Shown: piece after piece, positions 3,273 through 42,696 of the stretch
Position numbering within the stretch: position 1 is the first letter of the stretch
Layout: every line of letters starts with the position of its first letter
Source: Methanomicrobia archaeon
Lineage (GTDB): Archaea; Halobacteriota; Bog-38; Methanoflorentales; Methanoflorentaceae
Reading direction: 5' to 3'
Length of the DNA stretch: 64,000 bases
Assembly (NCBI GenBank): GCA_015661395.1
Contig: JACWML010000001.1
Location: 19,273-83,272 of the forward strand
Position numbers and translations under genes: made by a program
Notes under the pieces: generated by a model
What the model was told of the DNA's origin: nothing
Databases searched by the model: none
Seen by the model: the letters and a program-made list of their open reading frames with translations, nothing else

Positions 3273-3281
3273 TTTTATATA
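3273..3281 (+). promoter_or_regulatory. Putative TATA box upstream of the cimA/leuA-ilvBNC cluster
   Basis: TTTTATATA lies about 45 nt upstream of the point where the cimA/leuA reading frame opens. Confidence 0.4.
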
Positions 3282-3390
3282 GTTACGGCTTCCTTCTACA
3301 GCAAGGAAGTGACTACCGTGAGGGATCGCTTTATTTAACGACATCAAGTTTTTCGACACGACGCTGCGCGATGGAGAGCAAACCCCTGGT

Positions 3391-7183: not shown

Positions 7184-8170
7184 ATGGTTCAAATCTTTTA
7201 TAACGAAGACGCTGACTTGAAACATCTAAGCGGCAAGACAATCGCAATCATCGGTTATGGCAGCCAAGGGCACGCCCAAGCACAGAACCTCAAGGACTCG
7301 GGACTAGATGTTCTCATCGGTCTGCGCAAGGGGAGATCGTGGGATCAGGCGCTAAAAGACGATTTTGAAGTGCTCAGCGTCGCAGAGGCGGCAAATCGCG
7401 GGGACGTCGTGCAAGTGCTTCTGCCCGACGAACGCCAGGCGGCTGTGTATAAGGCTGAAATTGAACCGCAGCTCCAAGAGGGGAACGTGCTATCGTTTTC
7501 GCACGGCTTCAACATTCATTATAACCAGATCGTTCCCCCGGCACACGTGGACGTAGTTATGGTTGCGCCCAAAGGTCCGGGCCACCTCGTACGGCGCATC
7601 TATACCCAAGGGGAGGGCGTCCCAGCACTGGTGGCCGTGTACCAAGATTACACGGGTAACGCGTTCCAGACGGCGCTCGCGTATGCTAAGGGCATCGGCG
7701 CCACGCGAGCGGGCGTGCTAGAGACGTCGTTTAAGGAGGAAACAGAGACCGATCTGTTCGGGGAACAAGCTGTTCTCTGTGGCGGAACCACCGCGCTCAT
7801 CAAAGCCGGCTTTGAAACGCTGGTCGAAGCAGGCTACAAGCCTGAAATCGCGTATTTCGAGTGCCTGCACGAATTGAAGCTCATCGTCGACCTTATCCAC
7901 GAAGGCGGGCTCTCGTGGATGCGCCATTCAATCAGTGACACGGCAGAATACGGCGATCTCACCAGAGGGGAGTGCATTATTACCAATGCGACACGCGACA
8001 CCATGAGGGGGCTGCTCAAGGACATTCAAACAGGGGAGTTCGCACGCGAATGGATACTCGAGAATCAAGCTAACCGCCCGGTGTTTAACGCACTCACGCA
8101 ACGAGAGAGGGAGCATCCAATAGAAACGGTGGGCGCAAAGCTCCGCGCGATGATGACGTGGCTCAAGTGA
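7184..8170 (+). CDS. ilvC: Ketol-acid reductoisomerase
   Basis: 328 aa with [25 protein letters not shown] lies upstream of the ATG, and TTTTTATAC at 7131-7139 is a candidate TATA box. Confidence 0.95.
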
Positions 8171-39337: not shown

Positions 39338-40417
39338 GTGTTGATTGAAGGGCAAGACAATCAGAAGCTCAGCCGAGTCGGTGCGCGGATAAAGTCTCGC
39401 GTAGATCAAGCGAGCGATGCTGCTGACGAAGAGAGAGTGAGTTCTTCTCAGTTCATTCCCGGACTATTCTACCCCACGGACCACAGCGGCTATGCGCAAG
39501 CATTTGCGCTCAAGCGAGCTTTAATCGAGAAGCACGACGGAAAAGCGCTCGAAGAGGTGACTCCTGGAACCGAACTCGTCACTGAGCGCGGGACGTGTTA
39601 CCGCGTAGAGACGGAAGAGGGGGTAAGCATACGTACGATACCTCCAAAGAGAGCCAAAGAGAGCCTATTAACAGATTTTAAGCTCCTCCACGGCGTTAGA
39701 GAGACGACCGAGCGCGCATTGAAGGAACGCGGATACCGCAGCATCGCCGATCTCGTCGAGCACGACCGCTTTGGCACCCAGGCGCTCCGCTTCTTAAAGC
39801 TTGTCGAAATGCGCGACTCGGGTGAATTAATCGAATGGGTTGGAAGAAGGTTTACGAGATCCGACCCGCTCGCACTGAACGCCTCAGGCTTTCACACGCC
39901 AGACCAGTTGCTTTTTGTGGATCTCGAGACCCTGGGACTCTTCACGAGCCCAATTATAGTCATAGGAGTTGCTGAGGCGATCGACGAGACCCTGACCGTT
40001 CGCCAGTATGTTGCAAGGAACGTGGGCGAAGAACCGGCGGCACTGGAAGCGCTGCTTTCGCACGTTGACGCAAGCACTGCTCTTGTAACGTTCAACGGGA
40101 GGGCTTTTGACGTTCCTTTCCTTGAGCAACGCCTCGCTTACTACCGGATCCACGGCAATCTGCAGAGAGCTCACTTCGACGTACTCCAGTTCGCGCGACG
40201 AAGGTGGCGAGGGCTGACTCCTGACTTCAAGCTGGCCTCGTTGGAAAAACACGTAATGGGCGCTCGTCAATCAGATATTCCTAGCGCGTTAGTACCGGAA
40301 TTCTATGAGACGTACCTGCGCACACAGAACGCCGGACCGTTAGTCGCGATTATCGACCATAATAGACAGGATCTAGTCGCGCTAGCGCACATTTTCTCCA
40401 AGGTTTGTGAGGGGTAA
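39338..40417 (+). CDS. RNase H-fold 3'-5' exonuclease-like protein (YprB/MrfB, COG3359-like)
   Basis: 359 aa. The C-terminal half has LLFVDLETLGL...LVTFNGRAFDVPFLEQRL...HFDVL...DHNRQDL, which are DEDD-like exonuclease motifs. Confidence 0.7.
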   Translation: MLIEGQDNQKLSRVGARIKSRVDQASDAADEERVSSSQFIPGLFYPTDHSGYAQAFALKRALIEKHDGKALEEVTPGTELVTERGTCYRVETEEGVSIRTIPPKRAKESLLTDFKLLHGVRETTERALKERGYRSIADLVEHDRFGTQALRFLKLVEMRDSGELIEWVGRRFTRSDPLALNASGFHTPDQLLFVDLETLGLFTSPIIVIGVAEAIDETLTVRQYVARNVGEEPAALEALLSHVDASTALVTFNGRAFDVPFLEQRLAYYRIHGNLQRAHFDVLQFARRRWRGLTPDFKLASLEKHVMGARQSDIPSALVPEFYETYLRTQNAGPLVAIIDHNRQDLVALAHIFSKVCEG

Positions 40418-40491
40418 TCATATCGGTCGAGACTGTTCTGCGAATCCTGCAAAGCGACCCAAGGTTCAGCCGGAAGGTTGCGCACACCGAA

Positions 40492-42696
40492 GTGTTGTCT
40501 GCCCGAGAACCGATCTTTGCCGAAACGGCCGAAGAGATTGCACCAAACGTCCAGGCCTACCTGCGCAAAAAGGGCATTCGGTTGTACCGGCACCAAATCA
40601 AAGCGCGCGCTGCGTTGCGCGAAGGCAAAGACATAGTTATCGCAACCCCCACCGCTTCGGGCAAGACGCTCGCGTTCAACGTACCCATTTTTGAGGAGCT
40701 CGACCGTGAGCATAACGCGACTGCACTCTACCTCTATCCAACAAAAGCGCTCTCGAATGATCAACTGAAGGTGCTTCAAGAGCTCGAGCTTATTAGCGCC
40801 GTGCGTGTCAATCCGAGCGTTTACGACGGGGACACGCCATCGCATAAGCGGCCAAAGATTCGAACGAGTGCGAGGATCGTGATCAGTAACCCCTACGAAC
40901 TCCACCACGTCTTACCTTGGCACTACAAATGGCAGCGATTCCTCGCGAACCTAAAGTTCATTGTCATTGACGAGGCACACGTGTATCGTGGGGTCTTTGG
41001 ATCGAACGTCGCTCTTTTGATACGGCGCCTGCGGCGACTCTGCTCGTATTACGGATCCGAGCCGCAGTTTGTTATCTCAACGGCGACCCTTGCAAATCCG
41101 ATTGAATTTGGCGAGAAGCTCACGGGAAGGACCTTCACTCTTATATCTGAAGATGGATCCCCGAGAGCGCGCAAGTACTTCGTCCTGTATAACCCGTACG
41201 CTGACGGCATAGGGAAACGGTCCGCCCATCAGGAGGCCAAAGACTTGTTCCTCCTCTTTATCCGCAACCATCTGCAGACACTCTGTTTCGCACCGTCGCG
41301 AAAGATGGCAGAACTCATTGCCCTTTGGGCAAAAAATGAGGCTGAAGAATCGACACCGTTGCTCGCCGACCGGATTGCAGCCTATCGGGCCGGCTACTTG
41401 CCGTCGACACGGCGGCGGATCGAAGAACGGTTAAGAAGCGGTCACTTGGTAGGCGTAACGTCTACGAACGCACTGGAGCTCGGCATTGACATCGGTAGCT
41501 TAGACGCTGTCATCATGGCAGGGTATCCGGGCACGATCATTTCGACGTGGCAACAAGCGGGGAGAGCGGGCCGCGGGCAGGACGAATCGCTCGCGACCCT
41601 GGTCGGATTTCACGACCCGCTCGACCAGTACTTTATGAAGCATCCTGGCGCGCTGTTCGGAGGGTCGCACGAGCACGCCATTATCGACCTATCGAACGAG
41701 TACATCACCCTAGGACACGTTATGTGCGCGGCTGCCGAGTTTCCGCTTCGGCTACCTCGCGACGTCGCGTACTTTCCTGCTCTCCTCTCAGAATCGCTTG
41801 AGGAGCTGGAGCGCCAAGGCTTAGCCAAGGACACTTCGAACGGGTGGGTGTACTCAGGCAGCGGCAGGGCCACCGAGGCGGTCCCCCTGAACGCGCTCTC
41901 ATCTCAGATATTCAAAGTGCTCTGCGAGGGGCGGCTCCTCGAAACGCTCGACAAGACTCGCGCATACCGAGAGGCTCACTCGGGGGCGGTGCTGCTTCAC
42001 GAAGGCGAGACCTACGTCGTCGAGCAGCTCGACTTAACCAACCGCATCATTTCCGTGAGCAAGAAAAACGTGGATTACCACACAGAACCGATGAAAACCG
42101 TTGATCTTCGGATCGTCAAAGAGCTCGAAAAAAGGCCTCACGGTGCGCTCGTGGTGTCATTCGGCATCGTCGAAGTCGTTGAGCAGTACGTTGGATACAA
42201 GACGCTCCGCTACGATCAAGTCGTGGGAATCGAGAGCCTTGATTTACCGCCGCTCCGCTTCACCACGATGGCGCTGTGGTTCAGGGTCCCGGATGAGGCC
42301 GTCACGCAAGTGGCAAACGAGCAGCTCGACATCGGGGGCGGTCTGCACGGCGCAGAGCACGCGCTGATCGCCATGATGCCCCTGCACGTTATGTGCGATC
42401 GGTGGGACATCGGTGGCGTTTCGACCACGTGCCACCCAGATACCACTGCTCCAACGATCTTCATCTACGACGGTTTTGAGGGAGGGATCGGCCTCGCCGA
42501 AAAAGCCGTGGAGCTGATTGCTGAAATTGTCACCGTCACCCGTGAGCTTGTCACCGGGTGCTCCTGTGACATCGGATGCCCGGCGTGTATCTACTCCCCG
42601 AAATGCGGAAATGACAACAAGCCGCTCGACAAGCAGGCCGCAATCGTCGTGCTAGAACAGCTTGCGAATCTGGCGTCCGCTGCCTCTAACAGATAA
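40492..42696 (+). CDS. DEAD/DEAH-box helicase with C-terminal DUF1998/MrfA zinc domain (YprA/MrfA, COG1205-like); true N-terminus lies upstream
   Basis: Has TPTASGKT, VIDEAH, QQAGRAGR and a C-terminal CSCDIGCPACIYSPKCGNDN. Conserved N-terminal residues are encoded in frame upstream of GTG 40492. See findings. Confidence 0.85.
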   Translation: MLSAREPIFAETAEEIAPNVQAYLRKKGIRLYRHQIKARAALREGKDIVIATPTASGKTLAFNVPIFEELDREHNATALYLYPTKALSNDQLKVLQELELISAVRVNPSVYDGDTPSHKRPKIRTSARIVISNPYELHHVLPWHYKWQRFLANLKFIVIDEAHVYRGVFGSNVALLIRRLRRLCSYYGSEPQFVISTATLANPIEFGEKLTGRTFTLISEDGSPRARKYFVLYNPYADGIGKRSAHQEAKDLFLLFIRNHLQTLCFAPSRKMAELIALWAKNEAEESTPLLADRIAAYRAGYLPSTRRRIEERLRSGHLVGVTSTNALELGIDIGSLDAVIMAGYPGTIISTWQQAGRAGRGQDESLATLVGFHDPLDQYFMKHPGALFGGSHEHAIIDLSNEYITLGHVMCAAAEFPLRLPRDVAYFPALLSESLEELERQGLAKDTSNGWVYSGSGRATEAVPLNALSSQIFKVLCEGRLLETLDKTRAYREAHSGAVLLHEGETYVVEQLDLTNRIISVSKKNVDYHTEPMKTVDLRIVKELEKRPHGALVVSFGIVEVVEQYVGYKTLRYDQVVGIESLDLPPLRFTTMALWFRVPDEAVTQVANEQLDIGGGLHGAEHALIAMMPLHVMCDRWDIGGVSTTCHPDTTAPTIFIYDGFEGGIGLAEKAVELIAEIVTVTRELVTGCSCDIGCPACIYSPKCGNDNKPLDKQAAIVVLEQLANLASAASNR

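Follow-up and report, generated by a model that had tools for sequence, protein, structure and literature searches.

We have analysed here the 5' end of a helicase gene in a 64,000-nucleotide (nt) stretch of contig JACWML010000001.1 (GenBank assembly GCA_015661395.1, positions 19,273 to 83,272, forward strand) from a Methanomicrobia archaeon of Bog-38, an uncultured lineage of peat in the Halobacteriota; this whole stretch is called the window, and all positions refer to it. The gene follows a co-directional exonuclease gene, and its conserved reading frame begins ahead of any ATG, GTG or TTG. We propose, with a probability of roughly three in four, that the helicase is translated from ATA 40420–40422, a near-cognate start that would be assisted by a Shine-Dalgarno (SD) motif and probably coupled to termination of exonuclease translation. 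Three observations lead to ATA 40420 as the start: coding constraint sets in at the ATA, relatives have a canonical start at the same codon, and an SD-like motif stands at a spacing found elsewhere in the window. The features of the junction are as follows.

39338..40417, plus strand: MrfB/YprB-like RNase-H-fold exonuclease gene, 359 amino acids (aa), Pfam RNase_H_2, ending ...TGT GAG GGG TAA
40407..40413, plus strand: GTGAGGG heptamer, formed by bases 2–3 of the exonuclease Cys codon, the Glu codon and bases 1–2 of the Gly codon; contains TGA 40408–40410
40409..40414, plus strand: SD-like GAGGGG, 5 nt upstream of ATA 40420
40415..40417, plus strand: exonuclease stop TAA (TAG in contig L083)
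40418..40419, plus strand: two-base spacer between the genes, TC, GT, CC or CA in the clade, with three different bases at each position
40420..40422, plus strand: ATA, proposed near-cognate helicase start; ATA in 11 of 12 haplotypes, ATG in L171, GTG in the sister lineage L100/L002
40420..42696, plus strand: proposed full helicase coding sequence, 758 aa, MrfA/YprA-type by Pfam domains and a match to Protein Data Bank structure 6ZNP
40492..40494, plus strand: GTG, first canonical start and the gene callers' choice, most likely an internal Val at codon 25

Coding sequence ahead of the first canonical start

The preliminary description of this DNA had the helicase frame open from 40411, directly after an in-frame TGA (40408–40410), with no ATG, GTG or TTG before GTG 40492, and the sequence and the list of open reading frames (ORFs) agree with it: 27 codons from 40411 precede the GTG, and the first canonical helicase ORF is 40492..42696. 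It was also right about GTG 40407, which is shifted by one base against the helicase frame and opens no more than the ORF 40407..40694, with a product of 95 aa. Domain architecture, full-length similarity to YprA and the adjacent MrfB/YprB-like gene assign the helicase to the MrfA/YprA type. Four Pfam domains score above their cut-offs (PF00270, PF00271, PF22982 and PF09369, which are the DEAD, Helicase_C, winged-helix and MZB (DUF1998) zinc domains), and query residues 10–726 match residues 11–732 of chain 6ZNP_A, the structure of Bacillus subtilis YprA/MrfA, with an E value of 2.5e-149. The exonuclease matches PF13482 (RNase_H_2; E 5e-33) over profile positions 1–163 of 165, and its gene also precedes that of the helicase in relatives.

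The description had further placed GTG 40492 within the conserved N-terminus of YprA/MrfA helicases, and the comparison bears this out. The segment ahead of the GTG aligns to residues 11–35 of B. subtilis YprA (6ZNP), dozens of homologues align with it at their N-termini, and the GTG itself falls inside the conserved H-x-E-V-L motif aligned to that structure. With ATA as the start, the N-terminal length equals that of B. subtilis MrfA to within one residue.

Our alignment of the exonuclease-helicase junction covers 80 metagenome loci; the clade sample consists of 23 Bog-38 contigs (the window and 22 others, drawn from many different peat metagenomes) in 12 haplotypes, L171 included. The 24 codons at 40420–40491 vary in this sample at three first, three second and 13 third codon positions, and they differ from those of the 82%-identical sister lineage L100 by seven synonymous and nine conservative-looking non-synonymous codon differences. 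Their residues are kept across relatives of 82–96% identity, and the pattern indicates purifying selection on 40420–40491 and translation of these codons as the helicase N-terminus.

The same sample shows where this constraint begins. The junction reads TGA GGG [G/C]TA NNN ATA TCN GTC GAG in the window and in the 22 further clade contigs, and all bases between GGG and ATA that are free of exonuclease constraint vary (G/C at 40414, A/G at 40417, C/G/T at 40418 and A/C/T at 40419), which makes 40414–40419 look untranslated in the helicase frame. After the ATA, the next codon changes only synonymously (TCG, TCT or TCC), and from 40423 on most clade variation sits at third positions; among the first and second positions of helicase codons, only 18% and 12% of sites, respectively, are variable.

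Relatives carry a canonical start at the codon in question. In L171 the junction reads GAGGGGTAACC ATG TCT GTC GAG, in a local context identical to that of L099, which has ATA; its product, P0246, starts MSVEAVLR, and the locus belongs to the same 90% cluster. The sister lineage L100/L002 has GAGGGGTAATA GTG ACC GTA GAA, with GTG at the homologous codon, and the homologues P0018 and P0015 begin M/V-SVETV at the ATA-equivalent codon.

More distant lineages suggest how this layout arose. Their helicase ATG follows directly after TGA GGA (CA TGA GGA ATG GGA ATA A...) in an 11-nt overlap with the exonuclease 3' end, and L115 has an ATGA overlap of the two genes. In L102–109, which are relatives of 77–80%, the junction is TTG CGA GGG ATA AGC, the exonuclease stop now being TAA and the old ATG having become ATA; a change between TGC and TGT that is synonymous for the exonuclease Cys toggles CGA and TGA in the helicase frame between these contigs and the window (40405–40422). 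The comparison points to an overlapping stop and start as the ancestral layout of the family, and to a path from the ATGA overlap (L115) through ATAA with TTG-CGA upstream (L102–109) to GTAA with ATA, ATG or GTG two bases downstream, as in the clade of the window. The T-GAG-G at the junction is kept even in distant lineages, because the exonuclease C-terminus, ...F-S-K-[L/V]-[C/H/Y]-E-[E/G], is conserved.

The proposed ATA start and its alternatives

Duplex energies for SD motifs were calculated against an assumed 16S tail, GAUCACCUCCU, a general euryarchaeal consensus that may not be the host's, and all energies given here are to be read with that assumption. Of 41 gene starts in the window, 66% score less well than GAGGGG at 40409–40414 (−7.5 kcal/mol), which is also within the top 8% of random positions, and its 5-nt spacing to the ATA is that of GGAGGG-TTAAC-ATG at the gene at 7184. 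The preliminary description had raised, as one option, a non-AUG start placed shortly after a GAGGGG-type SD, and for the helicase this part has held up well, with ATA 5 nt after the motif and canonical starts in L171 and L100/L002 at the same place. A precedent for near-cognate starts is found in the window itself, in that NCBI annotates the start of CimA as ATC in a Bog-38 metagenome-assembled genome (MAG; JBAULJ010000089.1) and as ATT in Methanococcoides methylutens (CP199767.1), at window positions 3325–3327 and at 301–303 of L168 and L169.

Under this proposal the initiator tRNA would read AUA 40420 and give a 758-aa protein beginning (M)SVETVLRILQSDP. The small ribosomal subunit may be positioned by GAGGGG, which lies inside the last exonuclease codons; alternatively or additionally, ribosomes terminating at TAA 40415–40417 could reinitiate two bases downstream. 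The outcome would be low helicase output tied to exonuclease translation. Experiments in Haloferax and Escherichia coli demonstrate termination-reinitiation where the gap is between about −8 and +10 nt, with a steep fall beyond (PMC10666635; PMC6728339), and the co-directional genes here, with a gap of +2 nt from the exonuclease stop to the ATA, are within that range. The ancestral ATGA-type overlaps and the +2-nt gap together fit such coupling. The aligned sequences show where the start lies, which SD-like motif precedes it and at what spacing, a coding signature, and conservation across assemblies; that AUA itself initiates, and how far this depends on coupling as opposed to the SD motif, we infer from them.

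Several points weigh against the proposal. In E. coli, near-cognate AUH starts work at well under 1% of AUG, with ATT at 0.3% (Hecht 2017, as given in PMC10666635), and we found no direct evidence or measurement of AUA initiation in any archaeon. The 16S tail used in the SD calculation is a consensus not drawn from this genome, and co-transcription of the exonuclease and helicase genes is assumed. Distant homologues have Ile at the homologous position (M-G-I-T-V-E), and invariance of the ATA alone is not diagnostic. Finally, most clade members (L001, L085–L098 and others) have ATG at codon 17, where the window has AGG (40468–40470), which offers a possible alternative start in those contigs and is the source of a 744-aa database form starting MFSRKVAHTE; because the residue at this codon is polymorphic (R/M/K), the ATG is probably incidental.

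Other readings of the junction fare less well. It is improbable that translation begins at GTG 40492, with the 24 upstream codons a decaying remnant that followed loss of a start codon. No canonical start precedes this GTG in the frame, gene callers choose it (the homologues P0003 and P0004 are called from its position), and its SD-like score of −6.7 kcal/mol is moderate. The alignment to YprA, with the GTG inside the H-x-E-V-L motif, and the distribution of changes, with 13 of 19 variable sites at third positions and the residues kept in relatives, make a start there not credible. Such a start would yield no peptides from SVETVLRILQSDPRFSRK, and only peptides downstream of LSAREPIFAETAEEIAPNVQAYLR.

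A −1 slip at the exonuclease stop would instead create an exonuclease-helicase fusion, with tRNA-Gly slipping on G-GGG so that GAG GGG TAA is read GGG GTA. A homopolymeric run in the P site beside a slow A site is a known recipe for frameshifting; here a run of four G residues (40411–40414) precedes the stop, and a −1 step leads from the exonuclease frame to that of the helicase. We nevertheless regard the slip as very unlikely: GAG GGC TAA in clade contigs L087–91 and L118 breaks the G run, 40414–40419 are unconstrained, no fused exonuclease-helicase gene occurs among the 80 related loci, and ATG or GTG at 40420 in relatives speaks for independent initiation. The product would be a fusion protein of about 125 kDa with the junction peptide CEGVIISVETVLR / ...VCEGVIISVETVLR.

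Only a small probability is likewise left to initiation at ATC 40417–40419, which is in frame, follows the SD-like motif and parallels the ATC at cimA. In relatives this codon is AGT, GTC, ACA, ACC or ATA, and in the window only 2 nt separate it from GAGGGG, with an overlap with the exonuclease stop.

We give a still slimmer chance to a +1 shift at the start, by which ribosomes initiating at GTG 40407 would skip the A and continue with GGG 40411 to give M-G-V-I-I-S-V-E, with GTG 3318 acting likewise at cimA. The frames fit at both genes, the cimA leader has an out-of-frame start with a good SD (−9.1 kcal/mol) exactly there, such a start is present in 79 of 84 genomes, and GTGAGGG is invariant in the helicase clade. 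GTG 40407 at the helicase junction lacks an SD (−3.5 kcal/mol, which 48% of random positions equal or better) and lies inside the exonuclease coding sequence, whose codons force the invariance of the heptamer. The preliminary description had suggested a slip at GUG-AGG-G, taking AGG for a rare codon; AGG makes up 123 of the 1011 Arg codons in the window (12%) and is not a hungry codon, and initiator tRNA on GUG is unable to re-pair on UGA. The codons at 40414–40419 vary freely, the third codon being I, S, V or T, and relatives carry ATG or GTG at 40420, or ATG directly after TGA GGR, rather than a frame-restoring indel or fused frames. A review of archaeal recoding contains a single established cellular frameshift, of the −1 type, and no +1 event (PMC8211752). 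The helicase site thus has none of the marks of a +1 site that we looked for, namely a first start with its own ribosome-binding site (RBS), a slow A-site codon, conserved shift codons and fused homologues. A frameshift or fusion would produce the peptide GVIISVETVLR or the junction peptide ...SKVCEGVIISVE. As a separate observation, Rfam detected a single RNA gene in the window, a tRNA-Arg(CCG) at 1117–1191, and no tRNA-Arg(CCU).

A sequencing or assembly error that removed the start codon by an indel or base change, also raised in the preliminary description as a systematic artefact, is refuted by the agreement between assemblies, since the identical arrangement recurs, amid ordinary polymorphism, in 22 more contigs that come from many independent peat metagenomes and assemblers. 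Two further candidates were rejected. Reassignment of TGA (code 4 or 25) or its use for selenocysteine conflicts with TGA ending 16 of 49 confident genes, and cimA has a second in-frame TGA three codons upstream with no prior start. A start at TTG 40405 with read-through of the TGA has no SD (+0.2 kcal/mol), and at cimA it is CCG that precedes the TGA.

The heptamer and the cimA leader

The preliminary description was correct that GTGAGGG occurs at 40407–40413 and again at the start of cimA, at 3318–3324, each time with a TGA in the frame of the downstream gene. It considered this hard to dismiss as chance and possibly a recurrent recoding or initiation signal, and there our results depart from it. 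The window contains six copies of the heptamer, against 5.8 expected, and 53 of 100 shuffles reach six; GTGAGGG is thus not enriched within the window. The remaining four copies are gene-internal or antisense. The heptamer directly abuts the likely start codon at cimA (0 nt) but stands 6 nt before it at the helicase, and the two copies belong to different things, the helicase one being the Cys-Glu-Gly codons of the exonuclease and the cimA one part of a leader that Methanosarcinales conserve. We read the in-frame TGA and the out-of-frame GTG 40407 at the helicase as by-products of the exonuclease codons TGT GAG GGG, with no part in helicase decoding, and the sharing of the heptamer as a coincidence of coding and ribosome-binding sequence rather than an organism-wide recoding signal. 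Since NCBI already places the CimA start at ATC or ATT, what the two genes most simply have in common is a near-cognate ATH start rather than a recoding heptamer. They are the only genes affected in the window: in 11 others with a long open stretch before the first start, the stretch looks non-coding and the called start looks plausible. One start elsewhere in the window deserves mention in its own right, as the ORF called from TTG 18615 reads L-T-M-G-I-I-T-L-I-S-D-F-G, and ATG 18621 looks the more plausible start.

The cimA leader was compared between the window and the loci L003–L082 and L163–L170, with counts for 84 Methanosarcinales and Bog-38 genomes, and the site in the window is the following.

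3318..3338, plus strand: cimA comparison site, in which GTGAGGG 3318–3324 opens a 6-codon out-of-frame ORF, GTG AGG GAT CGC TTT ATT TAA (MRDRFI*), that overlaps ATC 3325

The gene callers of JGI and ENA begin CimA at GTG 3391, within the conserved region of catalytic motifs, and so shorten it to 471 aa. None of the Bog-38 cimA cluster members was seen to carry a canonical start in place of the ATC, and the 493/495-aa form occurs only in NCBI entries. TGA-GGG-ATY with no canonical in-frame start is present in 41 of the 84 genomes, including cultured Methanolobus, Methanosarcina and Methanococcoides, and in 79 of the 84 a start codon in the alternative frame stands 4 or 10 nt before the conserved GGG-ATY. 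Strong SDs precede the start of the small ORF in Methanothrix, Bog-38, Methanoperedens and ANME-2. The ORF itself is 6–10 codons long; one or two Ile codons are its constant feature, and a stop or a slow codon often comes next (MRDRFI*, MRDYII*, MNAWDRFIW*, MNRRDRFI*); one Methanoperedens MAG has no small ORF. In the cimA frame, the Leu codon TTA (3331–3333, in the N-terminal G-I-x-L-F), which overlaps the small ORF, is nearly invariant in GC-poor and GC-rich lineages alike, although TTA makes up only 4.5% of the Leu codons in the window. Such invariance suggests that selection acts on the nucleotides themselves or on the alternative frame. Several genomes have Ser in place of the Phe of the cimA frame while the Ile of the alternative frame stays.

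CimA is the first enzyme of isoleucine synthesis, and its gene heads a cimA-ilvB-ilvN-ilvC cluster. The small ORF may, as a tentative suggestion, serve in translational control, with ribosomes sensing the supply of Ile-tRNA and either gating the weak ATY start or shifting +1 into cimA. If so, archaea would have their first described case of a cellular +1 frameshift or of leader-peptide control; a plain weak start is the other reading of the site. No in-frame fusion of the small-ORF peptide to CimA occurs among about 160 homologues and cluster members; P0178, taken up as a candidate for such a fusion, is another ATT-start annotation with no small ORF. Neither cimA nor citramalate synthase is mentioned in the Methanosarcina mazei Ribo-seq paper and its 14 supplementary files.

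Other features of the cimA leader were noted along the way. The closest genomes with the cimA of the window are the MAGs bog_38 and fen_3 and several MFD bins. A TATA-like box, TTTATATA (3274–3281), is kept upstream of cimA in all Bog-38 relatives, and a perfect 7-bp inverted repeat, CTTCCTT...AAGGAAG (3289–3295 and 3303–3309), overlaps the SD-like GGAAGTGA. Methanolobus leaders (L024, L027–L030, L034, L037, L038, L046, L060 and L071) contain a hairpin with apparent compensatory changes, CTGTTAC..GTAACAG vs CTGCTAC..GTAGCAG, and in the same leaders ATCCCTC lies about 35 nt before GAGGGAT, with which it could pair. The leader of L070 (DBTV01000023.1, 'Acidobacteriaceae bacterium UBA1307') is identical to that of the Methanocellaceae MAG L072, and L025 (DATKUV010000028.1, 'Candidatus Nanoarchaeia') carries an ANME-2-like leader; both are probably mis-binned contigs in public MAGs.

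Related systems and meaning

The nature of the junction invites comparison with several known systems. The closest likeness is to near-cognate AUH starts, such as AUU in bacterial infC and ATT or ATC in CimA, where a conserved gene similarly has no ATG, GTG or TTG at its true 5' end; the helicase also shares with them a codon at which relatives have ATG or GTG and a weak start that is kept clade-wide. It differs in its use of AUA rather than AUU or AUC, in an archaeal host with start selection based on aIF1 and aIF2, in having no known autoregulatory logic, and in that initiation is deduced from comparison. Termination-reinitiation coupling (Huber et al. 2019, PMC6728339; 2023, PMC10666635) shares with the junction a co-directional gene pair, ATGA overlaps in relatives, the +2-nt gap, and protein products (MrfA/MrfB) that act together. 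The helicase departs from these cases by its non-canonical start and its SD-like motif, so that coupling and independent initiation are inseparable here. The likeness to +1 frameshift sites (prfB CUU-UGA-C with its upstream SD, Ty3 GCG-AGU-U and Ty1 CUU-AGG-C) is superficial and consists of an SD-like G run, an AGG and a required +1 shift, whereas the helicase site has no first-frame ORF with its own RBS and no slippery P-site codon, its AGG is not rare, and the start is restored in relatives. With the MrfAB (YprA/YprB) system of B. subtilis, the pair in the window has in common the order of DEAD, Helicase_C, winged-helix and MZB domains and an adjacent RNase-H-fold exonuclease, but it differs in its archaeal host, in placing the exonuclease first and in the abutting of the genes, and a role in the repair of crosslinks and mitomycin-type damage is putative.

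A near-cognate start is an already known class of feature, to which the helicase adds one example, and the case is of practical value for annotation and of modest biological interest. Gene finders restricted to ATG, GTG and TTG shorten the helicase by 16–24 residues in hundreds of entries (clusters of 265, 8 and 2 members), and comparative evidence of the kind used here can fix the correct start. With the lead of a recoding signal removed, the cimA leader and its conserved small ORF with Ile codons is the better target of attention. To our knowledge, conserved near-cognate starts are poorly documented in archaea. The retention of an AUA start across the clade, abutting the exonuclease stop, suggests that helicase output may be kept deliberately low and tied to translation of the exonuclease.

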